64,000 bases of DNA from an uncultured Spirochaetales bacterium (GCA_964494795.1 CAZBSV010000005.1:12842-76841); one strand, 5' to 3'; numbered from the stretch's first letter, positions 31,373 to 62,509 are shown. The notes: generated by a model from the sequence alone, not told the origin. Translations and numbers: made by a program.

Positions 31373-31973
31373 CATCGTCGATCTCCGCGATCCTGAATCG
31401 TCGCTCGTGGCGTGCCACGCGCGTTTCGATCGGCGCGTGTTTTGCCCTGGGGAATTCGAAGCAATCTCGAGCGGCCACACGGACGTGCAGCGGCGCTGGA
31501 TCCTGTGGTCGGCAAAAGAGGCCGCCTTCAAGGCTGTGCGTCGGGAACACCCAGGGGCCGCGTTTTCTCCCGCGCGCTTCGTCGTCGATCTCGATCGCTC
31601 GCTCTGCGGATCGGTCCGATACGGAATTCACCGCTTGCCGGTGCGGATCCGGATCGACGGGGACTGCGTGCACGCGGTCGTGAGCGAAAATCAAGCTCAC
31701 ACCGGATTGTTTTGGGGCGCGCGTCGGCTGACGACGGCCGAACTTCGCGACTCGAGTCAAGCAGTTCGCCGGTTTGCGATCGCGTCGATTGCAGCCGAAC
31801 TGCGCCTTGCGATTTCGGATCTGCGGATCGAGAAGGCCCGCCGGATTCCCGAGTTGATCGTCTCCGGCGAGCGCGCACCCGTGGCGCTTTCGCTGTCACA
31901 CCATGGCTCGTACGCGGGTTTCGCGTGCCGCGATCCGCGCATCGACCAAGCCCGCCCGAGCGTTCTCCATTGA
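31359..31973 (+). CDS. 4'-phosphopantetheinyl transferase superfamily protein
   Basis: Internal ATG at 31359 gives MLGNDIVDL. WSAKEAAFKA motif. ~204 aa. Confidence 0.7.
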   Translation: MLGNDIVDLRDPESSLVACHARFDRRVFCPGEFEAISSGHTDVQRRWILWSAKEAAFKAVRREHPGAAFSPARFVVDLDRSLCGSVRYGIHRLPVRIRIDGDCVHAVVSENQAHTGLFWGARRLTTAELRDSSQAVRRFAIASIAAELRLAISDLRIEKARRIPELIVSGERAPVALSLSHHGSYAGFACRDPRIDQARPSVLH

Positions 31974-34900
31974 GTCTCGCTACCGCCATTCGCCGGCTCG
32001 CCATCCTCAATCGCGGGGAGGCGGCGATGCGCTGCATTCGCTCCGTCAAGGCGCTCAAGGCGCTCGAGGGTTCGGATCTCGAATCGATCGCGATCTACAC
32101 TGACGTCGATCGCGACGCGCCCTTCGTCCGCCACGCGGACCACGCCATTCGACTCGAGGCGCCCAACGGAGCGGTTGCCGCCTACCTCGACCACGATCGC
32201 TTGATCGATCTTCTCGTGCGCGCCGGTGCGGACGCCGTCTGGCCCGGCTGGGGGTTCGTCGCGGAAGACCCCATTTTCGTGGATCGAGTCAGCGCGCTGG
32301 GGATTCGATTCCTGGGGCCATCCGGGGATGTGATGCGCGCTCTCGGCGACAAGATCGACGCCAAGCGAATTGCCGAAGATGCGGGAATTCCGGTCGTGGC
32401 GTGGAGCGGTGGCGCTCTCGCAGACGAGAATGCCGCCGCGCGCTGCGCGGCGGAACTCGGCTACCCGGTGGCCGTCAAGGCCGCTGCGGGGGGTGGTGGT
32501 CGCGGTATCCGGATGGTGGAGTCGGAGTCCGAGCTCGCGGCCGCGTTCCGTTCGGCGGCCGCGGAGGCGAAGGCGGCTTTCGGCAGCGATCGCCTGTTCA
32601 TCGAACGCAAGCTTTCGCGCGGTCGGCACATCGAGGTCCAAATCGCCGCCGATGCGAAGGGTTCTGCAATGTCACTCGGATGTCGCGACTGTTCGGTGCA
32701 GCGTCGGCACCAGAAATTGATCGAGGAAGCTCCGCCTCCGAGACTCTCGCAGAAACTTCGCGATGAACTCGAGCAAGCCGCTGTTCGTCTGGTCGAATAC
32801 GTCGGGTACGTGGGCGTGGGAACCGTGGAATTCCTCGTCGTCGACCAGGCGTATTCGTTTCTCGAAGTGAATCCGCGTCTGCAGGTCGAGCATGGGATTA
32901 CCGAGGAGTTGACGGGAATCGATCTGGTGCAACTCCAGATTCGCATCGCGAGGGGAGAACCGCTGCCGGAGCTCCGAGATTCCGGAGGCTGGGTTGCGAT
33001 CGAAGCCCGCGTATGTGCAGAAGACCCCCAGGCGGACTTTCTTCCGACACCCGGCCGGATCGCGCTATTCGATCCCGCACTCGGGCTGCGACTGAGGGTC
33101 GACTCCGGAGTTTCCGCCGGATGCCGCGTGCCTGCGGAGTTCGATTCGCTGATCGCGAAGATCATCGCCACGGGTGAGACGCGTGAAGAGGCGCGCGCTC
33201 GACTCGTCTGTGCGCTCACGGATTTCGAGCTCGTGGTCGCGGGAGGGGCGAGCAACAAGGGTTATCTGATCGATATCCTCGAGACTCCTGAATACCGCAG
33301 GGGCGAGTTCGACACCCAGTGGTTGGATCGCACGCCCGAGCTTCGGTTGGGCTCCGACGCTCACGCCGTCGAGGCCCTGGTCGCCGCGTCAATCCTCGCC
33401 TACCAGCGCTCGCGCGACGCGGCGCGGCAGAAATTCTATGCGGACCCGGCGACGCTTTCGCCGACGTCGATCCCGCCTTCGACCGGCCAGCGGATCGATC
33501 TCACAGCCGGCGCGGAGAGTTACCGCCTCGAGGTTTTCGCGGTGGGCGCCTGGCGCTACCGGGTCCACCTCGACGGTCGCGTTGCCGTCGCGACGCTCAG
33601 CGATGAGCGCGAGAACTCCGCGATCCTCGAACTGGGCGGTCGAAACCTCCGCGTATTGCACGATGTGTCGGAGCGCGGCCTGCGGATCGAGATCGAGGCG
33701 CATCCCTACCGCTTCACGAGTGAACTCGCCGGCCAGGTTCGCTCGGGCACTCCCGCCGTCGTGATCGCTCTGCAGGTGGCGGTCGGAAACCCGGTGAAGG
33801 CGGGCCAATCTCTCGGCCTGCTCGAGGCGATGAAGAGCGAAATCGACTTCCGCGCTCCCATCAGTGGCGTCGTCAAAGAAATCTGTGTGCGAAGCGGGCA
33901 GCAGGTGAGCGCGGGAGAGCTGCTCTTGATCATCGAAGCCGAGACGCGTGAGGCATTCGAATCGCCGCTTCAAAAGCGTCTGATGCTGACACCCGAAGTG
34001 GATTCGCTGGATCTCTTCTTCTCCGACGAAGTTGGAGGTGAGATCGTCGTGCAGAATCTGAAAGTCGTCGAGCGAGCGGATGCGGCCGCTCGACGCGCTG
34101 CGATCGATGCTGCGCGAGGCGAGATTCGGCGCATCCTGATGGGTTATGACGTGAATCCCGCACGAGGCATGCGCCTCGTCGCGTTGCTCGAGTGCCCGCT
34201 ACCCGAGGGCCTCTCGGCTGGATTTTGCAGCGAGCTCGCCGAGATCCGTCACGAGTTGTCGATCTTCTCGGATGTCGAACAGCTCTTCGTGCGGGCTCCG
34301 CACGCGTCCGAGACCGGTGTGGTTGGCCCGTCGAATCACGCGCGCTTGCGGGCCTACATGCGAAGGATGGCTACCGAGGGTTCCGGGATGCCGGAAGCTT
34401 TCCTGGCGATCCTGCGTCGCGCGCTCGTCCACTATGGAATCAACGATCTCAAGGCTTGCGACAGTCTCGAGCGCGCAGTCCTGCGCATCGTGGCCAGCCA
34501 GTTGTCACCCGATCTGCGGCGGCGTCTCGTCTTGGAGATCCTGAAAAGAATTCACGCTCTCGCAGAATCAGGTGTTTCGCTCGGAGGCGACGAACGGCTC
34601 CGCGATTCCCTGTCTTGCATTTCGAGTCTGCGCGGTCTGGTGCCCGACGCGCTGGCCGATCGCGCGATCGAAGCCAGCTATACGATCTTCGAAGGTCCCG
34701 CCTTGGAGCGCCAAGCGGAGCAGACCACCCAGGAGGTGGAAAGCTGGCTCGCCGACGCCGAATTCGTGCCCAGCCAACCTCCCAGAGCGGTGTTGGTTCA
34801 TCTTGCCAACGCACCCCAGAACGTTTTTGATCGCGTCGGTCGTTGGCTGGCGGATTCGAATCCACTGCGCCGTTCGGTCGCCGTGGCGGCACATATCAGC

Positions 34901-37558
34901 CGTTTCTACGCGCCCAATAAACCTCCGACGCACACGACCACGGTCATCGGGTCGACCTACGTTGAACGGCTCCACCGGGAGGACGGTCGAACGCTGCTCG
35001 GGAGCGTTACCAAGCCCGACCAGATGCTCCAGACGCTCGAGCGGCTCGCCCAAGCATCGCGTGAATTCGGTTCCGAAAAGCGAATCGATGCGATCGAATT
35101 GCTGGTTCCCGTCGGAGATCGCCGAGATCTCGAAGGCCTGCGCGACGAGATCGCATCCGCGCTCTCCGAGCGCTTGCATGCTGACCGCCTCAGCCTGACT
35201 GCACTCGTCGAAAACGACCGACCCGAGCACTTCAGTTTCGTGCAGACCGCTCGAGGTTGGGAGGTGATGAAAGAACTTTACGGTCTGCATCCAGAGACAG
35301 CCGGGCGCGTCGATCTCCACCGACTGAGAGCATTCGACTGCGAGCGCTTGGATTCTCCAGACGACATCTATTGCTTCCACCTGCGGTCGCGAGAAATTTC
35401 CGGTGACGAGCGGATCTTCGTACTCGCCGACTTTCGAGGTCGCTCTCCCGAGCACGGCCACGAGGCTACGCTGCATCTCGCATCGTTCGAGCGCGTGTTC
35501 TTCGACGCCGCGCGTACGTTGCGAAGCCACCTCGGCTTGCGGGATCCGAGTCGAAGACTGCAGTGGAACCGCATCGCGGTCTTCACTTCGCCGGCGATCT
35601 TCCTCGACGACCAGGTTGCCGCGCGCTTCGCGCGGCGCCTGGCGCCCGCCACGCGACATCTCGGCCTCGAGAAGGTGATCGCGCGGCTGAACGTACTCGA
35701 TCGCGCTCACCCGGAGAAGCGCGCCAGGCCGTTCGAGGTCGTGATCGCCGACCCAACCGGGAGCAACATGGAGCTCTCGTGGCGCGAACCGCATCTGGAT
35801 CCCCTGGAGCCGGCCCGGGATTACGAGCGAAAGGTCGTCGAGGCGCGCCGCCGCCGGCTCGTCTATCCCTATGAGATCATCCGTCTGCTGACCGGCGGAT
35901 CGTCGAACAACGGCGTCGCGAACCCGGAAGCCGCACCGGACTTGCCGCCCGGAAAATTCGAGGAGTTCGACCTGGCGCGCGACGCAGCCGCACCGACGGC
36001 GGCAAGCGTCGCGGGTCGCCCCTACGGGATGAATGCGAGTTCCGTCGTCTTCGGCGTGATCGAGACGCCGACGGAAAAAGTCCCGGAAGGCATGAAGCGT
36101 GTACTCGTTCTGTCGGACCCGACGATTGGAATGGGCGCGTTGGCGGCGCCGGAGTGCGATCGGATCATCGCGGCAATCGACCTCGCGGAGAGCATGAAGC
36201 TTCCGCTCGAATGGTTGCCGGTGTCGAGCGGCGCGCGGATCGCGATGGACAGCGGCACGGAAAATCTCGACGCGACGGCGAGAGTGGTGAGGCGCATCAT
36301 CACTTTCACGCAGTCGGCGGGTGTCATCCACATCATCGTCCAGGGCGTCAACGTCGGTGCGCAGAGCTATTTCGACGCGTTGGCGACGATGCTCCAGCAC
36401 ACTCGCGGCGTGCTGATCATGACCGCGTCGGCTTCGATGCTGCTCACGGGTCGGGCCGCTCTCGAAGCGGCGGGTGCGGTGTCGGCCGAAGACGACACCG
36501 CGATCGGCGGCTTCGAGCGGATCATGGGACCCAATGGTGAGGCCCAGTTCTACGCGCGCAATCTCGTGGACGCCTACCGGATCCTCTACGACCACTACCG
36601 CTTCACGTTCGTTCCGCCCGGCGAGGGCGCGCCCCGGCTGTTTGCGACCAGCGACCCGGAGACGCGCACGATCACCGAGTATCCCTGCGAGCCGGAAGAG
36701 GGACACGACTTCCGCAAGCTCGGCGAGATCTTCGATCGGGATTCGAATCTCGACCGCAAGCGCCCGTTTTCGATGCGCGCGCTGATGGCCGGCGTGATCG
36801 ATCAAGACGGCGGCCAGCTGGAGCGCTGGCGCGCCTGGCAGGGCGCGGAGATGGCGATCATCTGGGATGCGCATCTCGGCGGCTTTCCGGTCAGTCTGAT
36901 CGGCATCGAAAGCCGCAGCCTGGCGCGGGAAGGCTACAGCCCGACCGACGGCCCATCCGTGTGGAGCGGCGGCACCCTGTTTCCGCTCTCGTCGAAGAAG
37001 CTCGCGCGCGCGCTCAACGCGGCGAGCGGGAATCGACCGGTGGTTCTGCTCGCCAATCTATCGGGATTCGACGGGTCGCCCGAGTCGATGCGGAAATTGC
37101 AGCTCGAGCACGGCGCAGAAATCGCCCGGGCCGTGGTCAATTTCGCAGGCGCGATCGTCTTCCTCGTGGTGTCGCGATACCACGGCGGCGCTTACGTGGT
37201 CTTCTCGGGCAGCTTGAACGAGGGCCTGCGCGCCGCTGCGCTCACGGGTTCTTTCGCGTCGGTGATCGGTGGAGCGCCGGCGGCTGCGGTCGTATTCACC
37301 CGAGAAGTGCGAGCGCGCGCGGCGAAAGATCCGCGGATCGCAAAACTCCGACGGGAAACCGGAGCGAGCGGCCGCGACCGACTCGAAATTGCCTGGAAGG
37401 AAGTCCTGCTCGAGAAACAGGCCGAACTGGCGTCCGAATTCGATTCGATCCACAGCGTGGAGCGAGCTCTCGAAGTCGGCTCTCTCGAAGCGATCGTCGA
37501 CCCCGAGAACATGCGCAGTTACCTGATCGGAGAACTTCGAAAAGCAGCGGCGCGATGA
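31970..37558 (+). CDS. single-chain multidomain acyl-CoA carboxylase (biotin carboxylase - BCCP - carboxyltransferase), LCC-like
   Basis: In-frame TTG at 31970 (TTGA overlap with the PPTase stop). The first 186 codons of the track ORF look non-coding or shadow. BC: ILNRGEAAMRCIRS, KAAAGGGGRGIRMV, EVNPRLQVEHGITE. BCCP: LGLLEAMKSEIDF. CT: LSDPTIGMGALAAPE, LLANLSGFDGSPESM, SRYHGGAYVVFS. Confidence 0.85.
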   Translation: MSLATAIRRLAILNRGEAAMRCIRSVKALKALEGSDLESIAIYTDVDRDAPFVRHADHAIRLEAPNGAVAAYLDHDRLIDLLVRAGADAVWPGWGFVAEDPIFVDRVSALGIRFLGPSGDVMRALGDKIDAKRIAEDAGIPVVAWSGGALADENAAARCAAELGYPVAVKAAAGGGGRGIRMVESESELAAAFRSAAAEAKAAFGSDRLFIERKLSRGRHIEVQIAADAKGSAMSLGCRDCSVQRRHQKLIEEAPPPRLSQKLRDELEQAAVRLVEYVGYVGVGTVEFLVVDQAYSFLEVNPRLQVEHGITEELTGIDLVQLQIRIARGEPLPELRDSGGWVAIEARVCAEDPQADFLPTPGRIALFDPALGLRLRVDSGVSAGCRVPAEFDSLIAKIIATGETREEARARLVCALTDFELVVAGGASNKGYLIDILETPEYRRGEFDTQWLDRTPELRLGSDAHAVEALVAASILAYQRSRDAARQKFYADPATLSPTSIPPSTGQRIDLTAGAESYRLEVFAVGAWRYRVHLDGRVAVATLSDERENSAILELGGRNLRVLHDVSERGLRIEIEAHPYRFTSELAGQVRSGTPAVVIALQVAVGNPVKAGQSLGLLEAMKSEIDFRAPISGVVKEICVRSGQQVSAGELLLIIEAETREAFESPLQKRLMLTPEVDSLDLFFSDEVGGEIVVQNLKVVERADAAARRAAIDAARGEIRRILMGYDVNPARGMRLVALLECPLPEGLSAGFCSELAEIRHELSIFSDVEQLFVRAPHASETGVVGPSNHARLRAYMRRMATEGSGMPEAFLAILRRALVHYGINDLKACDSLERAVLRIVASQLSPDLRRRLVLEILKRIHALAESGVSLGGDERLRDSLSCISSLRGLVPDALADRAIEASYTIFEGPALERQAEQTTQEVESWLADAEFVPSQPPRAVLVHLANAPQNVFDRVGRWLADSNPLRRSVAVAAHISRFYAPNKPPTHTTTVIGSTYVERLHREDGRTLLGSVTKPDQMLQTLERLAQASREFGSEKRIDAIELLVPVGDRRDLEGLRDEIASALSERLHADRLSLTALVENDRPEHFSFVQTARGWEVMKELYGLHPETAGRVDLHRLRAFDCERLDSPDDIYCFHLRSREISGDERIFVLADFRGRSPEHGHEATLHLASFERVFFDAARTLRSHLGLRDPSRRLQWNRIAVFTSPAIFLDDQVAARFARRLAPATRHLGLEKVIARLNVLDRAHPEKRARPFEVVIADPTGSNMELSWREPHLDPLEPARDYERKVVEARRRRLVYPYEIIRLLTGGSSNNGVANPEAAPDLPPGKFEEFDLARDAAAPTAASVAGRPYGMNASSVVFGVIETPTEKVPEGMKRVLVLSDPTIGMGALAAPECDRIIAAIDLAESMKLPLEWLPVSSGARIAMDSGTENLDATARVVRRIITFTQSAGVIHIIVQGVNVGAQSYFDALATMLQHTRGVLIMTASASMLLTGRAALEAAGAVSAEDDTAIGGFERIMGPNGEAQFYARNLVDAYRILYDHYRFTFVPPGEGAPRLFATSDPETRTITEYPCEPEEGHDFRKLGEIFDRDSNLDRKRPFSMRALMAGVIDQDGGQLERWRAWQGAEMAIIWDAHLGGFPVSLIGIESRSLAREGYSPTDGPSVWSGGTLFPLSSKKLARALNAASGNRPVVLLANLSGFDGSPESMRKLQLEHGAEIARAVVNFAGAIVFLVVSRYHGGAYVVFSGSLNEGLRAAALTGSFASVIGGAPAAAVVFTREVRARAAKDPRIAKLRRETGASGRDRLEIAWKEVLLEKQAELASEFDSIHSVERALEVGSLEAIVDPENMRSYLIGELRKAAAR

Positions 37559-38256
37559 ACACGAGAGAGATCATCAGCGACCCGCGAAGGCCGTCCAGCA
37601 GCGGGCGAGAGGAAAAGAAGGCCGAAGTACGCCGCCGGATCCTCGAGGCCGCAAAGGAGATCTTCTTTCGGGACGGATTCATGGGCGCGAACCTCGACGA
37701 GATCGCAGAACTCGCGGGTGTCGCCAAGGGGACGCTCTACCGCTACTTCGACAACAAGGCGCAGATCTACCTCGCGGTTCTCTCGCGCAAAGCCCAGAGA
37801 TTCGAGAAGAAACTGCACGCCGCGCTCGACCCGAAGGCCACGCCGGCCGAGGCACTCGTTCGAGTGAGTCGTTTCTACTTTCAGCATTACGTCGAAAATC
37901 CGGACTATTTCCAGATCTTCTGGGCGATCGAGAACCAGGCCGTGATCGGCGACCTGCCGCCCGAACTCGTGGAAGAGGTGGTCCGACTCTGGGAAGAGGG
38001 CCTCGGGCTGTTGGCCGGGATCGTCGAAAGGGGCATTGCCGAGGGTGTGTTCGCCCCGTGTGACGCGTGGGAGGTTGCGAGCATCCTTTGGACGCTCGCG
38101 AATGCGATCATTCGAACCGAGCGCTCCTCCGCGCATCGGAGCCTGCGACGCAGCGCTCTGGATACGTTCTTCGACGATGCGATCGCGCTGGTGCTACGCG
38201 GCCTCGCCACGCCCGCGACTTGCGAGTCGCAAATGACGAACGCCCCGCGGGTTTGA
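37555..38256 (+). CDS. TetR family transcriptional regulator
   Basis: ATG at 37555 (ATGA overlap). The HTH is ILEAAKEIFFRDGFMGANLDEIAELAGVAKGTLYRYF. Confidence 0.88.
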   Translation: MNTREIISDPRRPSSSGREEKKAEVRRRILEAAKEIFFRDGFMGANLDEIAELAGVAKGTLYRYFDNKAQIYLAVLSRKAQRFEKKLHAALDPKATPAEALVRVSRFYFQHYVENPDYFQIFWAIENQAVIGDLPPELVEEVVRLWEEGLGLLAGIVERGIAEGVFAPCDAWEVASILWTLANAIIRTERSSAHRSLRRSALDTFFDDAIALVLRGLATPATCESQMTNAPRV

Positions 38257-38304: not shown

Positions 38305-38922
38305 TCAGCGCTTCGGGCGCATCCTGCGCCCAACCCCATACAGGCCACCCAGTCCCATACCGAGCAGGGAAAGCGTACTCGGCTCGGGCACGACCGCGAA
38401 GGCGCTGTTGAACGTGGTCGTTGGGGTGATGACATTGTAGAAACCATCCAATATGTCGTCCGTAGGAGCGAAGTCGCCCGAGGTGATCTGAAAGGATCCC
38501 GCGGTCGCGGTGTCGAGATGGAACACGACGGTCCCCAGCAAATAGCTCTGTCCGGCCAACAGACCGTCCGGACCAGGCGGAGCAAACACCGTAGCGTTGA
38601 TGTTTCTGATTTGGGTTCCGGTATCCGTGGTAGCTCCGAGTCCGAGCGGCAGAGGGCCTCCCTGGAAGCTCTGGAAGCTGACGACCGAAAAATCCGCAAC
38701 CAGCGCCGTGTAGTCGATACTCATACCGCCGCCCGCCGAACCATTCGCACCTGCTGTGAGGATCACGTTCAGCGTGATGTTGCTCGACGCAAGGGCAATG
38801 CTCGTGGTGTTTGTTCCAGAGGCCGCCCAGATCAAATCGATCGTTGCGCTCGCACTGGCCGCGCCGGCGAAGCCCGCCAGTGCGATGAGTCCACCAGCCA
38901 TACCGACCAAGAATTTCCGCAT
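38305..38922 (-). CDS. PEP-CTERM sorting-domain protein 1
   Basis: ATG at 38922 preceded by GAGGAGA. The signal peptide ends AGAASASA. The C-terminus is VPEPSTLSLLGMGLGGLYGVGRRMRPKR (PEP motif, TM, basic tail). Confidence 0.85.
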   Translation of the reverse strand: MRKFLVGMAGGLIALAGFAGAASASATIDLIWAASGTNTTSIALASSNITLNVILTAGANGSAGGGMSIDYTALVADFSVVSFQSFQGGPLPLGLGATTDTGTQIRNINATVFAPPGPDGLLAGQSYLLGTVVFHLDTATAGSFQITSGDFAPTDDILDGFYNVITPTTTFNSAFAVVPEPSTLSLLGMGLGGLYGVGRRMRPKR

Positions 38923-38997: not shown

Positions 38998-39384
38998 CTA
39001 CGGGCAGGCAGTCGTGCCCGTTGTCGTACCCGACGGGCCGGGGACGACGCCAAAATTCAGCGCAAAAAACGCATACTGCGCGAAGCCCACGGTGCAACCC
39101 GGGATCGTACCGGTGTGACATTTTTCCTGGTCGTTGGTGCCGAAGGCGAGGGCAAACTGACCGAAGTCGCTGAATCCAGGAACGCCATTGTTGTCGTAAT
39201 CCGCGTCGCAGCGGTTTCCGCACAGATCTCCGTCCGTGTCGTCCTGGGCCGAATTCAAGGCTGTTCTACAGTTGTCCTGAAAATCGTAGAGACCATCGCC
39301 GTCAGTGTCGGTCGGGGGGCCAGCCAACGCGGGCGCCCCCCAGAACAACAAGACCAAAGTGCTTGCAAGTAGCATGCGTTTCAT
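38998..39384 (-). CDS. small secreted Cys-rich protein with TSP3-type Ca-binding repeat and dockerin-like segment, paralog 1
   Basis: 128 aa. MKRMLLASTLVLLFWGAPALA / GPPTDTDGDGLYDFQDNC...DDTDGDLCGNRCDADYDNNGVPGFSDFGQF...PGPSGTTTGTTACP. Confidence 0.7.
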   Translation of the reverse strand: MKRMLLASTLVLLFWGAPALAGPPTDTDGDGLYDFQDNCRTALNSAQDDTDGDLCGNRCDADYDNNGVPGFSDFGQFALAFGTNDQEKCHTGTIPGCTVGFAQYAFFALNFGVVPGPSGTTTGTTACP

Positions 39385-39707
39385 GGGGGGGCTCTCCTCT
39401 TTATTCACGCCTAAGTGCGCGGCGTGCCTCTCTTGTTCGGCCGTTCGCAGAAGAGCCTTTAGGCATAATGTCACCCCAATCACGGAAGCCGGCTGAAAGA
39501 CACGGACGAGCCGGGGCTGAAAGACGAGATCCAGCAAAGGCGAAGAATTACAGCCACGCCGTGACGCGATCTCCACGCGTCAGAAGCGCGTATGTCGAAG
39601 GAGAGCGGAAACGCGCGCGCGTTAGATCCGAGGTCAGGTCGGACGTCAGAGGTCAAAGGTCAGGTCAGAGAAGAGGGCGCCGTGGAACGGGGCAAGCAGT
39701 GTGGCGC

Positions 39708-39839
39708 GGGAGAATGGTGGGAGAAGAAGGGAGAATGGCGGGAGAAGAAGACGGGGGACGCATCGGAGTGGAGGCGTCGACGGGAGAGAAGAGGAGTTCA
39801 GCGAGACGCAACTTGAATGCAAGACGCAACTTGAATGCA
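39708..39839. repeat. two adjacent tandem duplications (21 bp x2 and 18 bp x2) in a purine-rich spacer
   Basis: GGGAGAATGGTGGGAGAAGAA / GGGAGAATGGCGGGAGAAGAA at 39708-39749. AGACGCAACTTGAATGCA x2 at 39804-39839. Confidence 0.9.
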
Positions 39840-39870
39840 AAACGCCCCGGGTCGAAACCCGGGGCGTTTT
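39839..39870 (-). terminator. rho-independent-type terminator (bidirectional hairpin)
   Basis: AAAACGCCCCGGG-TCGAAA-CCCGGGGCGTTTT is a 13-bp stem flanked by A and T runs. It lies 35 nt downstream of PEP-CTERM gene 2. Confidence 0.8.
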
Positions 39871-39904
39871 GATCTGGTCGAGCGCTACGCTAGGAAAACT
39901 TGAT

Positions 39905-40528
39905 CTAGCTCCTGCGGCTGCGCCCTGCGAGCGCGACGCCACCCAGTGCCATCACGAGCAGGGAGATGGCTCCCGGCTCCGGGGCATTGATCAGGCTGGC
40001 GCTGTTCAGCGTAAGCGTCGCGTTCGATATGGTATCGCCAGCGAAGTTCAGAATGCCGTCATTAGGCCCCATGACCGGCCGGAACGTAAACGTGCCGTTT
40101 CCGAGCGCGCTCTTTCGGAACGTGATCGTTCCGAGCTGGGCGGTTCCGCCCGCGCCTTGTATGCCGGTGCCGACACCTAGGAAGCAGACGCAGACCGCGT
40201 TGAGGCCCACAATCTGCGATCCCGAGTCGGTCGGCAGTCCGAGAGTCGACGGGAACACATTTGATGGAATGTTCGGTGTGTTCGCGAATGAGACGACCGC
40301 CACCTTGCTCAGTGCGTTGCTGTAGTCGACGCTCACAACGCCGCCCGACGAGCCGCCCGCGCCCGTGGTGAGCCTCACGTTCAGGACGATTGTGCCCGAC
40401 AGCGGGACGTCTTGAATCGTGTTAGTGCCGTTGGCCCAAAGAAGGTCGATCGTGGCGCTCGCACTGGCTGCACCGGCAAACCCCACCAGTGCAACCAAGC
40501 CCACTGCTGCTGTAAAGAATTTCCGCAT
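39905..40528 (-). CDS. PEP-CTERM sorting-domain protein 2
   Basis: MRKFFTAAVGLVALVGFAGAASASATIDLLWA shares the N-terminal ATIDL(I/L)WA with protein 1. The C-terminus is APEPGAISLLVMALGGVALAGRSRRS. Confidence 0.85.
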   Translation of the reverse strand: MRKFFTAAVGLVALVGFAGAASASATIDLLWANGTNTIQDVPLSGTIVLNVRLTTGAGGSSGGVVSVDYSNALSKVAVVSFANTPNIPSNVFPSTLGLPTDSGSQIVGLNAVCVCFLGVGTGIQGAGGTAQLGTITFRKSALGNGTFTFRPVMGPNDGILNFAGDTISNATLTLNSASLINAPEPGAISLLVMALGGVALAGRSRRS

Positions 40529-40610
40529 TGTCCTGTCTCCTCGATTAACTCAGAGTGTTCTGATCAAGATCAGAGTGGTTTGATTGCAATGTTTCCCGAA
40601 GCTCCTACGG

Positions 40611-41012
40611 CTACAACGGGCAAGCCACCGTTCCCGGTGTTGTTCCAGACGGACCGGGCGCCTTGAGGTAGAGCTGACCGAATCTGCCGAAGTCGGAAAC
40701 ATTAACCGTGCAGCCGGGAACGACGTGGCCGATGGCGATGCAAAAGCTCTCCGCGCCCGTTTTGCCGTACTTTTGGCCGAACAAACCGAAATCCGTAACG
40801 TTCGTGTTGCCTAGTTGGTTAAAATCGGCGTCGCAGACGTTTCCGCACTTATCCGAGTCGCTGTCATCCTGAGCCGGATTCTTCGCAATTTTGCAGTTGT
40901 CGGCTATATCTACGATCCCGTCGCTGTCCGTGTCGGGTCCGGCGGTGCCCGCGAATGCGGGGCTTCCCCACAGCATGAACGCGAACATCGCTGCCAATAT
41001 CGTCAATCTCAT
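40611..41012 (-). CDS. small secreted Cys-rich TSP3/dockerin-like protein, paralog 2
   Basis: 133 aa. MRLTILAAMFAFMLWGSPAFA / GTAGPDTDSDGIVDIADNC..DDSDSDKCGNVCDADFNQLGNTNVTDFGLFGQKYG...VNVSDFGRFGQLYL..PGPSGTTPGTVACPL. Confidence 0.7.
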   Translation of the reverse strand: MRLTILAAMFAFMLWGSPAFAGTAGPDTDSDGIVDIADNCKIAKNPAQDDSDSDKCGNVCDADFNQLGNTNVTDFGLFGQKYGKTGAESFCIAIGHVVPGCTVNVSDFGRFGQLYLKAPGPSGTTPGTVACPL

Positions 41013-41129
41013 TTTAAGCTCCTTGTCGATGGCGCTGACCAGTTTCAGTTCTCAATTCCCAGTTCTTCTGACTTTCGACCGATTGCATTTCGCCAGGGGA
41101 CATTAAGCCCGAATTCGCTCCAGGTTGTC

Positions 41130-41145
41130 CAGTCAAAAATGACTG
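41130..41145. promoter_or_regulatory. perfect 16-bp palindrome CAGTCAAAAATGACTG in the conserved leader; candidate operator
   Basis: 6-4-6 palindrome about 125 nt upstream of the start at 41012. An identical copy lies at 55604-55619. Confidence 0.35.
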
Positions 41146-41201
41146 TTTGCCCAAAGAATTTCGCGAGCCCGATCAACCGATCAATCCGCAGATAGAAGAC
41201 G

Positions 41202-41250
41202 CTCCCATTTCTCCCATTTACTCGCTTTCTCGCTTTCTCGCTTTCTCGCG
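41202..41250. repeat. microsatellite-like repeats (9 bp x2, 8 bp x3.5)
   Basis: CTCCCATTT x2, then CTCGCTTT x3 plus CTCGCG. They sit exactly where similarity between duplication copies A and B ends. Confidence 0.9.
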
Positions 41251-41407
41251 ATCTCTGGCAGGGCCAACCAGAATCCCCTGCGCGCATCGCACTTGGGCCC
41301 GATTATGTGCAAACGCGATGCCACTGGCCAACTGAAAGGTAAGTCATTGATCTTAAAGGAAGTTTTATATCTGGCGAAGGAGCCGGGTGTGAACGCGCGT
41401 TCCTGAA

Positions 41408-41427
41408 TAGGGAAAAGCTTTTCCCTA
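41408..41427 (-). terminator. perfect 20-bp palindromic hairpin just downstream of the exosortase stop
   Basis: TAGGGAAAAGCTTTTCCCTA lies 9 nt after the stop codon at 41436. Confidence 0.6.
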
Positions 41428-41435
41428 GGGCTGCG

Positions 41436-42995
41436 CTATACGCTCGGCGGGTAGCCGGTGAGGTCGATTTTGGGTCGGAACGAGCGGTAGAAATCGAGCA
41501 GCAGCGCCTCCGCGGCGGCTAGCCGCGAGGGGCTCGTCGCCCCCAAGGGCGTGCTGATTCGCACGGAAACGCCCTCTCGCGGCCGGCCCCAGGCGCTGTT
41601 GTCCAGCGCGAGCGCGTAGCGGAGGATTTCGTCCGCGAGGCCCCGGCTTCCCTGCGTCCAGTCGAGTGCCAGCTCTCGCCGATTCCCCGTCCCGAAGCGG
41701 ACCACGCTCAGCCGCGCCCGCGGGCCATCGAGCGGCAGCGCAACTTCGCGCAATTCATCCTCCCGCCACCAGCCGCTGCCGGGAAACGCGGTTTTGGGTG
41801 AAAGCGGACTCCCGTTGCGGGTTTCGAGATTGCCGACGCCGACGAACAGCCGCACCGACTCTCGGCCTCGCTTGTATTCGCGATCGACCCGCGCCCGGAA
41901 GCGCACGATTCCGAGATAGGCGAGATCCGTATTGAGCGCGGTGGACGTCCAGCCGTCCAATTCCTTGGGGATCTGGTTGTCCGGGAGGGGTAGCGACCCG
42001 CGCGCGGGTGCCTGCCAGCGCGGCAGCGTCTCGGAGAGGGTCACGAGCGCGCCCGCGATCAGCGCGCTGACGAGCAGCGGTCCGACGAGGCTGGTCTTCG
42101 CAGGTCGAGCGTCGCTCGACGCAGCGGCTCGCTTGGCGCGTGCGCGGCGGGGCAAGAATTTCTCCAGCACCCCGTCAATTCCATAGAGGATCAGCAGGCC
42201 GACGAGCAGCATCGCGATCCCCTGCATGGTGTGGATTTCGCCGATCTCCGAATGCGGGTTCAAGATCAGCGTGACGGCGCGAAGCCCGTTGACGCCGAAC
42301 GCGACCACGGGTGCCGCGACGAGTAGCAGCGCGGCGTGCAGTCCGCGGCGCCGAAACATGTCCAGCATCAGGAACGCGAGCATCGTGAGCGACTCGCAGG
42401 AGCGCAGGCCCGCGCAGGTTTCGATGATCGCGAAGTTCTGGTCCGGCTGGAGGATCTGGTCCCCGGTGACTGAAGTGGGAATCCCAAGCACGCGCAGCAC
42501 GAAACCCGTGTACTCGGCGGTCCAGATCTGCATCGCCCAGAGAACCTGATTGAGCAGCGCTGCGGGGATCCGCATCGCCAACACCAGAAACAACGTCGGC
42601 AGCGCGAGTATCCGGAGCGCTGGCGCGCCCCAGAGCAGTGCCCCGGTACCCATCAAGTGGAGCATCAGCGCGGGAACGAGCAGATCTTGCGCGCCGGTGT
42701 AGGTCGCCCAGGCGTAGATCGCGACGCAAGGCAGCAGCAGGCCGAGCGCGAGGCCGTATGCTGCGCGCCGCGGCAGCGCGAGCAGTCGATACCAGCGGCG
42801 GTAGACGAACCAGAGCGCGACAACGAGTGTCACGCCAGGGCCCGATGCGGTGCTGTGAAAAAACAGATTCTCCACTTCATGCTCGAGGTCGTAACTGCTC
42901 GTCGTGAAGAGGCCTTGGTAGGCGAGCGCGGATAGGATCAGCGCGAGCGCTGCGAGCGCGATGTAACGCCAATCGATGCTGCTGATGATGCTCAA
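41436..42995 (-). CDS. exosortase fused to a C-terminal EpsI-family domain
   Basis: TTG start. It is polytopic. The exosortase catalytic region is FAIIETCAGLRS, followed by NGLRAV and H-containing helices. After the last TM the periplasmic domain contains IPKELDGW...REYKRG...SPLSPKTAFPGSGWW, resembling EpsI. Confidence 0.85.
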   Translation of the reverse strand: MSIISSIDWRYIALAALALILSALAYQGLFTTSSYDLEHEVENLFFHSTASGPGVTLVVALWFVYRRWYRLLALPRRAAYGLALGLLLPCVAIYAWATYTGAQDLLVPALMLHLMGTGALLWGAPALRILALPTLFLVLAMRIPAALLNQVLWAMQIWTAEYTGFVLRVLGIPTSVTGDQILQPDQNFAIIETCAGLRSCESLTMLAFLMLDMFRRRGLHAALLLVAAPVVAFGVNGLRAVTLILNPHSEIGEIHTMQGIAMLLVGLLILYGIDGVLEKFLPRRARAKRAAASSDARPAKTSLVGPLLVSALIAGALVTLSETLPRWQAPARGSLPLPDNQIPKELDGWTSTALNTDLAYLGIVRFRARVDREYKRGRESVRLFVGVGNLETRNGSPLSPKTAFPGSGWWREDELREVALPLDGPRARLSVVRFGTGNRRELALDWTQGSRGLADEILRYALALDNSAWGRPREGVSVRISTPLGATSPSRLAAAEALLLDFYRSFRPKIDLTGYPPSV

Positions 42996-43296: not shown

Positions 43297-44166
43297 TCAA
43301 CGCTGCGGGGAGTCATGCGACCGCGAATCCGGCAGATCCTCGAAGCCGAAGAAGAGATCGTCATAGTAGACGTCCGCATGCAGCGCGGCCCCCTCGGGCT
43401 TGTCGTCCCAGCGGACCCCGAAGATCACCCCCAGCTTCTGGTACTTCTCCGGCAGAGTCCCCCAGAGCCGCTCGAAGTCGCTTTTCACCGGTAGATCGAA
43501 GTGCACCCAGGTTGCAAGTTCGGGTGGTCCATGGGCGATGATCGCCGTCTTGACGTTTCCCCCGTCATCGGGTTCTTCGGCGGGCCCCGCGAGCTGGTAG
43601 CGGACCTGTAGGTTGTTGAGTTCTGGGCTGATCTCCGTGTCAGCTGGATGATGCGACGCAACGATTTCGGGCGTGCGCGGGTCGCCGGCCGCGACGACGA
43701 TGATCTGTAGCTGGAGAATTCCCGATTCCGGGACATCCTCCCATCTCTCCACGCGATACCAGCCCGCAACCCTGTCGGGAAAGCGGGTTGGCGAGATTTC
43801 CTGGGGCGCGCTGACGAAGCGGACGGGGCGCTCTTGGTCTCCTGGCTGCCAGCTCGCGAGAAAGTAGGCGGAGCGATGGCCCGCGTGTACGGGCGCAGTC
43901 GCGAGTTCGAAATCGACCAACTTGCGGTCGCCGCCCTCTCCCCAGCCTTCCGTGTCCTCCTCGAAGCCCGGGTTTCGCAGTTGATTTCCGACGAGCAGAG
44001 GGGTTGGGGCCTGCCACTTCACATCGAGACGCTTCTGCACCGGAGGCGCTGCGTCGCCGCAGGACAGCACAGCGGCGGCGAGCATCAGCGCGACCGCGTG
44101 GCCGGCCCGCCTTGCTTGCGTTCGGTGCTCTACTTGCGTTCGTTGCTCTAGTATGGGCTTGGCCAT
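43297..44166 (-). CDS. hypothetical lipoprotein with CBM4/9-like sugar-binding signature
   Basis: Internal ATG at 44166. Lipobox LAAAVLSCGD. NPGFEEDTEGW is typical of the start of CBM_4_9-type beta-sandwiches. Confidence 0.55.
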   Translation of the reverse strand: MAKPILEQRTQVEHRTQARRAGHAVALMLAAAVLSCGDAAPPVQKRLDVKWQAPTPLLVGNQLRNPGFEEDTEGWGEGGDRKLVDFELATAPVHAGHRSAYFLASWQPGDQERPVRFVSAPQEISPTRFPDRVAGWYRVERWEDVPESGILQLQIIVVAAGDPRTPEIVASHHPADTEISPELNNLQVRYQLAGPAEEPDDGGNVKTAIIAHGPPELATWVHFDLPVKSDFERLWGTLPEKYQKLGVIFGVRWDDKPEGAALHADVYYDDLFFGFEDLPDSRSHDSPQR

Positions 44167-44299
44167 CGACGAGTTCGAGTATAGGGAGCACTGCGAGCCG
44201 TTTCGACCGATGTTGCGGCGTTCCAGCGCCGGTCGCGGAAACGCATCGCGCAGGGCGCGCCGCTTGCTTCGAACGCGATCCGATGCGCGAGGGGTTAGC

Positions 44300-44992
44300 G
44301 TGCCCATCTATCGTCTGACCGACGAGTTGATCTTTCCGCCAGCCGAACAGGCCGATTTCGGCGGACTGCTCGCGCTGGGTGGAGACCTCGAGCCGCGGCG
44401 CCTGCTGCTCGCTTACTCGCTGGGAATCTTCCCGTGGTACGAAGAAGGGCTCCCGATTCTCTGGCACAGCCCCGATCCGCGCATGGTGCTGCTTCCCTCG
44501 CGGCTGCGGGTTTCGCGCAGCCTTCGCAAGATCCTGCGCGATCCACCGTTCGAAATCCGACTCGACGGCGCGTTCGAGTCGGTGATTCGCGCGTGCGCGC
44601 GCATGCCGCGCGATGGGCAGCACGGGACCTGGATCACCGACGAAATGATCGATGCCTACACACGGCTCTTCGCGCTCGGCTACGCGCACTGCGCGGAGGC
44701 TTGGTCGGGTGACGAACTCGTCGGTGGACTCTACGGTGTGTCGCTAGGCGGTTGCTTTTTCGGCGAGTCGATGTTCGCGGCGCGCGCGAACGCGTCGAAA
44801 GCAGCGTTCGTGATGCTCGTCGAGCAGCTCGCGCGTTGGGGATTCGACCTGATCGACTGTCAGGTCCACACCGAGCACCTCGCGCGCTTTGGCGCGACAG
44901 CGTGGCCGCGCAGCCAGTTCTTGTCGGCTCTGAAGGCGTCACTCGGCCAGAAGACGCGCCGCGGTCACTGGCAGTTCGACGCTGAAAGCTGA
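44300..44992 (+). CDS. aat: leucyl/phenylalanyl-tRNA--protein transferase
   Basis: GTG at 44300 gives a ~230-aa protein. Motifs are LLLAYSLGIFPWY, WHSPDPRMVL and GGLYGVSLGGCFFGESMF. Confidence 0.85.
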   Translation: MPIYRLTDELIFPPAEQADFGGLLALGGDLEPRRLLLAYSLGIFPWYEEGLPILWHSPDPRMVLLPSRLRVSRSLRKILRDPPFEIRLDGAFESVIRACARMPRDGQHGTWITDEMIDAYTRLFALGYAHCAEAWSGDELVGGLYGVSLGGCFFGESMFAARANASKAAFVMLVEQLARWGFDLIDCQVHTEHLARFGATAWPRSQFLSALKASLGQKTRRGHWQFDAES

Positions 44993-55059: not shown

Positions 55060-55487
55060 CTACAACGGGCAAGCCACCAATCCCGGTGTCGTTCCGGATG
55101 GGCCGGGCTTCTTGAGGTAGCGCTGACCGAATCTGCCGAAGTCGCAAATATTGACCGTGCAGCCGGGAACGACGTGACCGATGCAGATGCAATATTTCTC
55201 ACAGTCCTCTTTGCCGAACACACCACAGTCCACTTTGCCGAACGCTTGGCCGAACAAACCGAAATCCTTAATGTTCGTTATGCCGTCTTGGTTGAAATCG
55301 GCGTCGCAGTAGTTTCCGCACAGATCCAAGTCGGTGTCATCCTGAGCCGCGCGTTCGGCGCAGTCCTGCAGTTGTCGGCTATATCTACGATCCCGTCGCT
55401 GTCCCACTCGGATCCGGCGGTGCCCGCGAATGCGGGGCTTCCCCACAGCGTAAGAGCGAACATCGCTGCCAATATCGTCAATCTCAT
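55060..55487 (-). pseudogene. small TSP3/dockerin-like protein, paralog 3, apparently frameshifted
   Basis: The N-terminal part (MRLTILAAMFALTLWGSPAFAGTAGSEWDSDGIVDIADNC) is in track ORF 55278..55496. The remainder (DDTDLDLCGNYCDADFNQDGITNIKDFG...PGPSGTTPGLVACPL) is in track ORF 55060..55446. Relative to paralog 2 there is a 2-nt excess: AACGCGCGGCT versus AATCCGGCT. Confidence 0.6.
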
Positions 55488-55603
55488 TTTAAGCACCTTG
55501 TCGATGGCGCTGACAAAATCCAGTTCTCAAGTCCCAGTTCTTCTAACCTCTACCGATTGCATTTCGCCAGAGGAGATTGAGCCCGAATTCGCCCCAGGTC
55601 GTC

Positions 55604-55619
55604 CAGTCAAAAATGACTG
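55604..55619. promoter_or_regulatory. second copy of the palindrome CAGTCAAAAATGACTG
   Basis: Identical 16-mer at the same relative position in the conserved leader. Confidence 0.35.
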
Positions 55620-55807
55620 TTTGCCCAGAGAATTTCTCGAGCCCGATCAACCGATCCATCCGCACGAAGGACGAGGGGATGAGGCGCGTAGAGTCAGCCC
55701 CTAGGAAACCCGAGAAGCGCATGGCACGGCCAGCCTGCCAGGTTGGCGCCGCGCCCGATCCATCGCGCGACGCTCTGATCCTGGCAGTGTACCACCGGGG
55801 CAGATCG

Positions 55808-55823
55808 AAATGGCTAGCCATTT
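55808..55823. promoter_or_regulatory. perfect 16-bp palindrome AAATGGCTAGCCATTT
   Basis: Lies in the 480-bp divergent region between the paralog-3 leader and the GST gene. Confidence 0.2.
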
Positions 55824-55966
55824 TGATCGCTACTTCTGGCGCGCGGGTCGCTGGAGCGCCGCGAAGGCTGGCGCGCGAGTCGCGGAAGCGCCGCGAAGCA
55901 GATCGCCGGCGTGAACGCGTCGGTTATCATGGGCTTTCTTGCGCCAGATGCCCGACGAGGAACTCC

Positions 55967-56650
55967 ATGATCGATCTCTACACCGCAGCGACGCCAAATG
56001 GCCACAAAGCGTCGTGTACGCTCGAGGAACTCGAGATCCCCTACGAGATCCACGCGGTCGACCTTTCCGCGCTCGAGCAGAAGAAGCCGGACTTCCTGCG
56101 GCTCAACCCCAACGGTCGGATCCCGGTGATCGTCGATCGCAGCGAAGGCGACCTGCCGGTCTTCGAGTCGGGCGCGATCATGCTCTACCTCGCCGAAAAG
56201 GCCGGGCGGCTGCTGCCCGCGGATCGGCGCGGCCGCGCGCGCGCAATCTCGTGGTTGATGTTCCAGATGGGCGGGATCGGTCCGATGATGGGACAGGCGA
56301 ACGTGTTCTTCCGCTATTTCCCCGAGAAGATCCAGCCCGCGATCGACCGCTACCAGAACGAATCGAGGCGGCTGTTCGAAGTGCTCGACGCGCAGCTCGC
56401 GCAGAGCGAGTGGCTCGCGGGCGAATATTCGATCGCGGACATCGCAAACTGGTGTTGGACGCGAACGCATCGCTGGTCGGGGGTGTCGGTGGACGGGCTC
56501 GAGAACTTGCAGCGCTGGATGGACGCGCTCAAGCAGCGGCCCGCGCTGAGACGCGGCGTCGAGGTTCCGGCTGCGCGCCCGAGCCTCATCGAAGACGAAG
56601 AGGCCAGCGAGAAGTTCGCCGAAAGGGCGCGCGCGATGTTGCAGCGCTAG
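55967..56650 (+). CDS. glutathione S-transferase (YfcG / Nu-class-like)
   Basis: ATG at 55967 gives [27 protein letters not shown]...[11 protein letters not shown]...[14 protein letters not shown]. Confidence 0.85.
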
Positions 56651-62503: not shown

Positions 62504-62509
62504 TCTGAG

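Follow-up and report, generated by a model that had tools for sequence, protein, structure and literature searches.

Cohesin and dockerin modules outside cellulosomes are already known, and PEP-CTERM proteins are numerous in environmental bacteria, where they have almost no recognisable domains and, to our knowledge, no known molecular role. Similarly, we know of no system for which the exosortase reaction and its acceptor have been established. Our analysis of 64,000 nucleotides (nt) of DNA from an uncultured Spirochaetales bacterium (GCA_964494795.1, CAZBSV010000005.1:12842-76841; the whole stretch is called the window below) revealed a locus in which these elements meet: small secreted proteins, each with a thrombospondin type 3 (TSP3) repeat, a dockerin-like module and a conserved Cys-Pro tail, are encoded beside an exosortase and PEP-CTERM proteins with a predicted cohesin fold. 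This linkage of dockerin-like modules with cohesin-shaped anchored proteins suggests a docking system in the style of the cellulosome.

In dockerins generally, an intramolecular clasp joins the stretch just ahead of the first calcium loop (positions -1 to -3) to C-terminal residues (Slutzki et al. 2013, PMC3821032). The chemistry of the clasp is variable, involving aromatic-proline stacking or salt bridges, and breaking it lowers stability and cohesin binding; a disulfide clasp is not mentioned in that article, in which the word occurs 0 times (PMC3821032). The small proteins of the window resemble dockerins (PF00404) in a predicted tandem pair of loop-helix F-hand units, spaced some 33 residues from each other, in a first loop that fits D1, D/N3, S/D5, G6, V8 and D12, in the placement of the module at the C-terminus of diverse cargo proteins and, as proposed here, in a contact between the C-terminal residues and those just before the first calcium loop. 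They differ from dockerins in scoring below the Dockerin_1 model, in a degenerate second loop (HxEPI...), in the seamless fusion of a TSP3 repeat at the N-terminal side, in a clasp that would be a disulfide, and in the many module copies that stand alone and without cargo.

Another close parallel is the 'planctosome' hypothesised for freshwater Planctomycetes (PMC6461901), a cohesin/dockerin complex with TSP3 repeats that is not cellulosomal; this is likewise an in silico proposal of cohesin-dockerin assembly beyond cellulose degradation in a diderm, with TSP3 repeats in the same proteins. Unlike the system described here, the planctosome has Pfam-recognisable cohesins and dockerins, an LTD anchor and peptidase cargo, and is without PEP-CTERM, exosortase and a Cys-Pro terminal clasp. 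The PEP-CTERM/exosortase system, in which Haft et al. (2006, PMC1569441) described sigma-54 motifs ahead of PEP-CTERM operons that mostly comprise a single gene, is matched in the window by a partner protein with PEP motif, transmembrane helix and Arg cluster, by an adjacent exosortase-EpsI gene and by a sigma-54 -24/-12 motif in a long upstream intergenic region. Unlike in those operons, the first gene after the sigma-54 promoter is here the small dockerin-like one, with the PEP-CTERM gene second; the exosortase fits no named Xrt subtype, and the small protein is without a PEP-CTERM signal.

Three paralogs of the small protein (A, B and C; Table 1) are present in the window, all on the minus strand and one of them frameshifted. 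As the initial annotation had described, they have in common a signal peptide, a TSP3 repeat, dockerin/EF-hand-like loops and the tail GPSGTTxGTxACP. A homolog search over 5.8 billion proteins returned 80 homologous protein clusters (E down to 1e-39), nearly all 125-180 amino acids (aa) long and all unnamed, including one identical to paralog B (P0001, found in NCBI and Logan); conservation was read from alignments of 42 and 79 sequences. The hosts suggested for the family are uncultured marine Myxococcota ('Deltaproteobacteria'), represented by metagenome-assembled genomes (MAGs). The signal peptide consensus LLWGxPAFAG is conserved across the family alignments, and that of paralog B, ending P-A-F-A before a Gly, is without a lipobox, no Cys being found near the predicted cleavage site. 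No model in Pfam or NCBIfam covers the family: only the TSP3 part of the window proteins was recognised, the C-terminal two thirds belonging to no curated family in either database. The presence of a TSP3 repeat was borne out, PF02412 (cut-off 25 bits) matching paralog A at 28 bits and 77 of the 79 family members (best E = 8.3e-10), with paralog B just under the cut-off at 22.2 bits; the family profile matched COMP and thrombospondin at E = 1e-37 to 1e-18, COMP being the best match (1.4e-37). The TSP3 residues D29, D31, D38, N39, C40, N45, D50, D52, D54, G57, C60 and D61 are invariant, and C56, D63, G68, D74 and D107 are at least 90% conserved. With other TSP3 proteins (PF02412; the COMP/TSP signature domain, Myxococcus xanthus MtsC/MtsD, OmpA-like proteins) the family shares the motif DxDxDGxxDxxDNC...NPxQxDxDxD...CDxD and two canonical Cys; in comparison, it has only about one and a half repeats and an extra Cys, C56, in place of the Gly/aromatic of DGxGDxCD.

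The dockerin or EF-hand resemblance that had also been proposed for the region after the repeat found marginal but consistent support. The first loop has the general form D63-x-N/D-x-x-G68-x-V-x-x-x-D74 and the consensus D63-Y-D-Q-S-G68-x-V-G-x-x-D74 followed by FGxF, and fits EF-hand/dockerin positions 1, 3, 5, 6, 8 and 12, while relatives of the ALOHA lineage have two canonical loops, e.g., DHDGNGTIDSTD. An AlphaFold2 model of the small protein, with a mean predicted local distance difference test score (pLDDT) of only 66, placed helices at H51-60 and H84-93 (mature numbering); all 15 of its 15 Foldseek matches in the PDB were dockerins or thrombospondin/COMP, and the best, at the moderate confidence of the query model, was the type II dockerin 2y3n_B (probability 1.00, TM-score 0.72 on the target, E = 0.012). 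The same dockerin was matched by the family profile at E = 0.024, followed by 2vn6_B and 2vn5_B and then by EF-hand proteins, over profile positions 61-115, and Pfam Dockerin_1 matched 6 of the 79 members (best E = 1.6e-5). The module is dockerin-like, and we do not assign it as a member of PF00404, which the window proteins themselves miss.

Directly downstream of paralogs A and B lie the genes of partners A and B, the latter within the DNA described by the initial annotation and left unmentioned there. Both show the features of PEP-CTERM proteins (PF07589, TIGR02595), namely PEP motif, transmembrane helix, Arg cluster and adjacent exosortase, and both exceed the Pfam PEP-CTERM cut-off of 20.7 bits (Table 1); partner A matched the partner-family hidden Markov model (HMM) at E = 1.4e-86. 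The AlphaFold2 model of partner B, built from an 85-sequence alignment, had a pLDDT of 92.1 and consisted of an 11-strand beta-sandwich and a C-terminal helix. Its top 25 Foldseek matches in the PDB were all cohesins (E = 4.6e-7 to 1.7e-5, probability 1.00, TM-score up to 0.74 on the target), among them the non-cellulosomal cohesin of Archaeoglobus fulgidus, and the partner is thus predicted to have the cohesin beta-sandwich (jelly-roll) fold. In this predicted fold it resembles cohesins (PF00963; scaffoldins; A. fulgidus 2xdh, Clostridium perfringens 2ozn/2vo8), and as with anchoring scaffoldins it is encoded beside a dockerin-like protein and is predicted to be cell-anchored. Unlike cohesins, the partners are without detectable sequence similarity and have a single domain each, and unlike cohesin scaffoldins they would be anchored by PEP-CTERM and exosortase in a diderm, not by S-layer homology domains or sortase. 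The adjacent exosortase (EpsH)-EpsI fusion scored below every named Xrt cut-off in NCBIfam, the best being XrtD (108.9 bits vs 400), with XrtW at 96 vs 425, and may represent an undescribed Xrt type dedicated to this family of cohesin-like PEP-CTERM proteins.

The linkage of the three genes extends well beyond the window. When HMMs from our own alignments were scanned over all fetched loci, the order exosortase, small gene, partner gene was found in 11 loci, often followed by a second small-partner pair, and small-partner pairs recurred in six more loci with the exosortase outside view. The cassette persists in the distant loci L003 and L042, which are 36-43% identical, and in L003 (43% identical) it has other flanks (S8 peptidase, YfhO, TPR). 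When the two pairs of a genome were compared, the identity between the small genes and that between the partner genes (small/partner) were 45/43, 53/38, 64/48, 77/53, 77/63 and 77/64, with position-specific orthologs also visible; since the identities of small and partner genes track together, the pairs evolve as units.

Furthermore, the two kinds of domain are joined in single proteins. A cohesin-like domain is fused to the whole TSP3-dockerin-ACP module in at least eight protein clusters (P0282, P0307, P0308, P0321, P0327, P0329, P0331, P0332) and at two genome loci (L016, L020), the fusion P0282 being found on 4 contigs. Where partners have their PEP-CTERM anchor, the fusions carry the module, joined at what is left of the PEP motif or directly behind it: partners read ...FNSAF-LINV-PEPG... 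where fusions read ...FNSAF-LVNVSEP-DFDGDG and ...VVDLEPTPVP-DFDGDG. Because the domains follow each other in the opposite order to the genes, read-through artefacts are excluded. The module is also C-terminal on secreted proteins of 240-1009 aa with FGE-sulfatase-like, PKD+GSDH, PD40/DPPIV or FG-GAP domains, and this use on cargo proteins resembles, by analogy, the deployment of dockerins; unlike in cellulosomes, there was no carbohydrate-active cargo among the cargoes examined.

The initial annotation had drawn attention to a conserved penultimate Cys at the extreme C-terminus, which proved accurate and far beyond chance. C131 is invariant in the 79 aligned homologs, and the tail residues G120, P121, S122, G123, G127, T128 and P132 are at least 90% conserved; 58 of the 79 members end exactly in CP and the remainder are 1-4 residues longer. 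In a wider set of 133 non-redundant modules from proteins and genome loci, 131 end at most 6 residues past the Cys and 103 end C-P-stop, and within the close family the terminal position of the tail is strictly kept.

Cysteine patterns point to a structural role for this residue. Exactly four Cys are conserved (C40, C56, C60 and C131), 20 of the 79 members carry only those, and the total is even in 67. Our survey of Cys counts in 156 modules revealed exactly one tail Cys in 131 of the 132 modules with a C56-type Cys; in P0327, an apparent exception whose sequence was read, the C56-type Cys is displaced by one position (DADCYGN). Modules without a C56-type Cys had two tail Cys (C-x8-12-C loops), none, or one together with an odd mid-domain Cys count. 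In three members (P0073, P0074, P0078) C56 is replaced by Tyr, and each has gained a second tail Cys 5-6 residues upstream (GGCPGNPGCP, GGCPGNPACP and LGCAGTAGCN, respectively), which reads as a compensatory pattern. C40 and C60 correspond to the canonical TSP3 Cys pair; C56 occupies the Gly/aromatic position of the canonical motif DGxGDxCD and is therefore family-specific, like C131. The likeliest disulfides would thus be C40-C60 and C56-C131. The partner family has no conserved Cys, and partner A has zero, so that an intermolecular disulfide to the partner is unlikely. Judged from these sequence patterns, the terminal Cys probably lies in an ordinary intramolecular disulfide, and the tail would be the end of a domain and no sorting signal. 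Relative to D63, C60 stands at -3 and C56 at -7, and their candidate partner is penultimate; by analogy, the simplest reading is that the tail would be a covalent, disulfide version of the N-to-C dockerin clasp, and as the last structural element of a C-terminal module it would explain why nothing follows it.

Distant relatives clarify which part of the tail belongs to the module. An exhaustive search of representatives with the whole protein gave 12,725 hits, mostly giant multi-TSP3 proteins, and is informative only for the few whole-module matches, which lie at the ends of large proteins. In P0094 and P0144 the modules are in tandem and the internal copies (...PGPSGLACADASGATAPCYIQYGSGDTDGD...) continue into the next TSP3 repeat; P0125 ends PGPSGLIQ and P0135 ends PGPSGLIP, both without Cys, and P0104 ends PGPSGYGCGVPAGSAPCN. 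Homologs that lack the terminal motif or extend past it, which the initial annotation had named as evidence contrary to its view, were therefore found among distant relatives (P0094, P0144, P0125, P0135) and not within the close family. These internal and Cys-less ends imply that PGPSG is the conserved end of a widespread TSP3-plus-dockerin-like module, which appears to be more widespread than the ACP-ended subfamily and seemingly has no curated model; the TTxGTxACP extension is specific to the subfamily of the window. A related lineage of Myxococcota has other residues in the middle part of the tail (PGPSLRADRDxxACP, PGPSKKANRVVPFCP, PGPSGLACP) and retains the C56-type Cys and the final Cys-Pro. 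The tandem TSP3 plus dockerin-like modules of P0094, P0144 and P0104 occur in proteins of about 1,600 aa, and the end of each is formed by PGPSG(L) with a C-x8-12-C loop after it.

We infer the disulfides, the binding of calcium, the cohesin-dockerin interaction and the cellular location from sequence and predicted folds, and together they outline the following model. The small proteins would be stand-alone copies of a C-terminal calcium-binding module in which one TSP3 repeat runs into a dockerin-like F-hand pair. After Sec export, periplasmic oxidation of the DsbA type would form C40-C60 and C56-C131, and the disulfide from C131 to C56 (or alternatively to C60) would tie the C-terminus to the N-terminal side of the dockerin, a covalent clasp that would stabilise the module and its cohesin-binding face. 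With Ca2+ loaded at the TSP3 and F-hand sites, the clasped module would dock in a Ca2+-dependent manner on the cohesin-shaped PEP-CTERM protein encoded downstream, which the adjacent exosortase would process and anchor. The same module on enzymes and repeat proteins would recruit these as cargo to the anchored cohesin-like proteins, fusions of cohesin-like domain and module could extend or cross-link the assembly, and cargo-less stand-alone modules might act as cap, competitor or cross-linker. For this reading as a whole, that is, a disulfide-clasped dockerin-like module together with docking on the partner, the balance in our judgement tips slightly in favour; the cohesin-dockerin-type docking itself, which depends on the modelled folds, we regard as evenly poised.

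Several observations weigh against this reading. On the side of the small proteins, loop 2 is degenerate in the subfamily of the window (HxEPI...VxxxD107 FGxF), with only the Asp of position 12, D107, kept, and no Dockerin_1 match was obtained for the window's small proteins at E up to 1. A sequence-level assignment of the partner to the cohesins was rejected, as 0 of 85 partner-family members matched Pfam Cohesin (PF00963) even at E up to 10, the partner-family profile found no cohesin among PDB sequences, and hhalign against the verified CipA cohesin 1aoh_A gave a probability of 0.07%; the likeness is one of fold only. With regard to the clasp, 12 of the 79 members have odd Cys totals, some of these being fragments or having a possible signal-peptide Cys, the pairing may instead be C40-C56/C60-C131, and the tail was predicted with low confidence (pLDDT 48-59), so that the AlphaFold2 model gives no structural view of the disulfide. 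Conservation of GTTxGT in the tail goes beyond what a disulfide alone explains, and the C-terminus may have a secondary role. Finally, arrays of small genes without a partner exist, as in L001 (four tandem genes beside a glutathione S-transferase (GST) gene) and likewise paralog C, and the sigma-54 promoter described below is missing from the cargo and fusion genes.

The excess conservation of the tail lends some weight to a reading that follows the initial annotation, in which GPSGTTxGTxACP would be a C-terminal recognition signal and its Cys would be processed, lipidated or bound covalently (as a thioester or thioether) to the cell envelope or another molecule. Such a signal would be consistent with the almost invariable end of the modules within a few residues of the Cys, with conservation that exceeds the Cys alone (G120 P121 S122 G123 T T x G127 T128 x A C P), and with the position of the genes in an exosortase locus, and the lack of any database match leaves room for a new signal. 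Covariation of the terminal Cys with C56, as expected of disulfide partners, the mostly even Cys totals and the compensation in C56-less members leave the attachment reading unsupported, however, and the GTTxGT segment is swapped for LRADRDxx, KKANRVVPF or GLA in related lineages, while PGPSG-type ends are internal or Cys-less in distant ones. In addition, no candidate modifying enzyme is conserved next to the stand-alone arrays (L001), and the tail is without the transmembrane helix and basic cluster of PEP-CTERM, MYXO-CTERM, LPXTG and GlyGly-CTERM signals. We consider a signal improbable; what likelihood it keeps stems from a degree of tail conservation that a disulfide by itself would not demand. 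The statement that no named sorting signal has this form was upheld: Pfam, NCBIfam and the sequences themselves gave no match to PEP-CTERM, VPDSG-CTERM, MYXO-CTERM or a lipobox, the small proteins ending ...ACP(L) without hydrophobic helix or Arg cluster. For MYXO-CTERM in particular, no transmembrane segment follows the Cys, and the NCBIfam match to MtsC (NF047638; 42 bits vs a cut-off of 350) is limited to the TSP3 repeat at aa 25-79. The possibility that the genes encode precursors of bacteriocins or of ribosomally synthesised and post-translationally modified peptides was dropped, given the Sec signal peptides, the folded Ca2+-binding domains and the lack of adjacent maturation enzymes. 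More generally, a conserved penultimate Cys at the C-terminus need not mean a sorting or attachment signal, a tempting over-reading that is corrected here.

The pairing with PEP-CTERM proteins can also be understood in other ways than by docking. The most conservative is that the small proteins are TSP3-type calcium-binding proteins of the matrix or envelope, co-regulated with their PEP-CTERM neighbours and without specific binding to them; the cohesin-like fold would then be a generic beta-sandwich, and adjacency would reflect a shared regulon and a function in biofilms or extracellular polymeric substances. The absence of sequence support for a cohesin assignment would fit such a role, as would the recurrence of the beta jelly-roll in unrelated families (pilin, AgI/II and CLIPPER domains rank below the cohesins in Foldseek), the occurrence of bacterial TSP3 repeats in OmpA-like and cell-cohesion proteins (MtsC, MtsD) and the partnerless arrays. 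We nevertheless hold it to be rather unlikely, since the top 25 structural matches contained no sandwiches other than cohesins, the small protein is independently dockerin-like, fusion and cargo architectures follow dockerin logic, and the tight 1:1 pairing holds down to 36-43% identity and across different flanks. Exosortase could instead cut the cohesin-like protein at the PEP motif and ligate it to the Gly with which the mature small protein begins, and the conserved order of exosortase, small gene and PEP-CTERM gene with its 1:1 pairing, the conserved mature N-terminus (A-F-A before Gly, assigned by eye) only 2-6 residues ahead of TSP3, and the topology of at least 10 fusions, joined at or just after PEP remnants like the predicted product, would all be consistent with such a reaction. 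This case is wholly circumstantial, however: linker domain swapping accounts for the fusions just as well, for no system are the reaction of exosortase and its acceptor known, the signal-peptide cleavage site was predicted by eye only, and the role cannot apply to modules on large cargo proteins or in partnerless arrays, all of which makes ligation highly improbable in our view. If true, it would identify the long-unknown acceptor of exosortase, and cohesin-TSP3-dockerin chains made post-translationally could polymerise head-to-tail through cohesin-dockerin contacts.

Among the papers covered by our literature search, none joins PEP-CTERM with cohesin or with cohesin plus dockerin, or exosortase with thrombospondin, and what is suggested as new here is the pairing of a dockerin-like module, clasped by a disulfide and fused to a TSP3 repeat, with cohesin-shaped PEP-CTERM proteins anchored by exosortase. 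The locus offers a testable candidate function for one PEP-CTERM family, that of a cohesin-shaped anchor whose ligands would carry a disulfide-locked TSP3-dockerin module. If the docking model is true, cohesin-dockerin assembly would extend to the exosortase-anchored surfaces of diderms (uncultured marine Myxococcota) and to non-cellulolytic cargo, and a covalent variant would be added to the dockerin 'clasp'. A small, disulfide-locked and Ca2+-switchable binding pair could also serve protein display.

Table 1. Genes and sequence elements of the cassette and of paralog C in the window, with positions counted from its first letter
Feature	Position	Strand	Remarks
Cohesin-like PEP-CTERM protein A	38305-38922	-	205 aa; partner of paralog A; Pfam PEP-CTERM 23.6 bits
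Paralog A	38998-39384	-	128 aa, ends PGPSGTTTGTTACP; layout as in B; opens the second pair
Terminator-like hairpin	39838-39868	-	GCCCCGGG-TTTCGA-CCCGGGGC, then TTTT; just past the stop of the partner B gene; pattern scan
Cohesin-like PEP-CTERM protein B	39905-40528	-	207 aa; partner of paralog B; Pfam PEP-CTERM 22.7 bits
Paralog B	40611-41012	-	133 aa, secreted; TSP3 repeat, dockerin-like module and Cys-Pro tail; ends PGPSGTTPGTVACPL
C-terminal tail of B	40614-40658	-	PGPSGTTPGTVACPL; C131 is the proposed disulfide-clasp Cys
Dockerin-like loop-helix pair of B	40659-40826	-	aa 63-118
TSP3 calcium-binding repeat of B	40827-40940	-	aa 25-62, DTDSDGIVDIADNC...NPAQDDSDSDKCGNVCDA; holds C40, family-specific C56 and C60
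Sec-type signal peptide of B	40950-41012	-	MRLTILAAMFAFMLWGSPAFA, next residue G; cleavage after A-F-A judged by eye
Conserved 5' leader	41013-41297	-	about 250-285 nt, promoter to B start codon; DNA alignment, 8 loci
Sigma-54 promoter-like motif	41308-41323	-	TGGCATCGCGTTTGCA (-24 GG / -12 GC); upstream of paralog B
Exosortase (EpsH)-EpsI fusion	41436-42995	-	519 aa; PF09721 5.4e-31, PF11984 8.8e-20
Paralog C	55060-55496	-	frameshifted copy of B; two open reading frames, 55278-55496 and 55060-55446

Paralog B opens a predicted sigma-54 transcription unit. At nine of ten loci the consensus TGGCAY-N5-TTGCA stands in the same position upstream of the first small gene, L003 having a near-match, and nine of the 11 occurrences of the strict motif in 1.44 Mb (all fetched DNA, both strands) are those upstream of the first small gene. 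A terminator-like hairpin closes the first two-gene unit, and the arrangement of motifs suggests that a sigma-54 promoter would drive the small gene and then the partner gene up to this terminator. The motif was absent upstream of the 26 genes tested among second pairs, fusions, cargo genes and stand-alone arrays, and a common sigma-54 regulon for these genes was rejected.

The DNA of the intergenic leader between exosortase and first small gene is conserved even among MAGs with only about 50-60% protein identity (window 41013-41435, minus strand; L023 8797-9179; L007 573-956; L002 1951-2312; L004 7598-8000; L008 5437-5867; L011 3652-4048), and a palindrome, GGAAAAGCTTTTCC, follows the exosortase stop within it. 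RNAalifold gave a possible long-range helix of GTTGGCCCTGCCAG with CTGGTCAGCGCCA beside the Shine-Dalgarno sequence, with weak covariation (term -0.54). Identity as a known RNA was rejected, Rfam giving no match, and the leader may be a new cis-regulatory one. Some 120 nt ahead of the start codons of paralogs B (41130-41145, CAGTCAAAAATGACTG) and C (55604-55619), and at the corresponding place in L023 (9047-9062), there is a perfect palindrome, CAGTCA-N4-TGACTG; its two matches in the window compare with 0.08 expected by chance, and it may serve as an operator or fold into a small hairpin. An insertion specific to the window (41190-41240, minus strand) also lies in the leader of paralog B, with tandem GCGAGAAA octamers (GCGAGAAAGCGAGAAAGCGAGAAAGCGAG) followed by a duplicated GGGAGAAATGGGAG, which is absent in the orthologous leaders.

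Paralog C is 89% identical to B in a DNA alignment; a +2-nt indel after the DNC codons shifts its frame, and it has in addition a 24-nt in-frame insertion. The frameshift could be that of a real pseudogene or an assembly error. About 180 nt of the leader of B are kept, without the sigma-54 promoter and without a cohesin-like partner. The region of paralog C (55060-55930, minus strand) is divergent to a gene for a YfcG/YghU-like glutathione-dependent disulfide-bond oxidoreductase of the GST type (55577-56650, plus strand), and adjacency to GST is also seen in L001, where the four tandem small genes are intact.

In relatives of the partner the cohesin-like domain is modular and is also joined to a C-terminal domain of another kind, about 110 aa long (...IEINALRGGSPTV...TKTCK), to a further, unrelated extension, or to a Cys-rich PT-linked segment that precedes PEP-CTERM (P0312, P0299, P0319, P0267, P0297, P0314, P0320, P0324, P0334). 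A 336-aa open reading frame (ORF; 43297-44307, minus strand) lies directly upstream of the exosortase; Pfam and NCBIfam gave no match to it, and close to the N-terminus it has a lipobox-like VLSCGD; genes of similar size without Pfam match occupy the same position in L004 (4883-5878) and L005 (1823-2809), and its product may be part of the system. On the other side, the cassette is flanked in the window, L002, L004 and L005 by a giant ORF that fuses biotin carboxylase, biotin-lipoyl and carboxyltransferase domains (31412-37558, plus strand; 1862 aa as called in L002 and L004) and by an adjoining TetR-family regulator (36961-38256, plus strand). A further large ORF (62504-64000, plus strand), which runs off the end of the window and would encode one more secreted protein of the TSP3 kind in this genome, contains at least three TSP3 repeats (96 bits), preceded by a weakly copper amine oxidase-like region (E = 6e-8).

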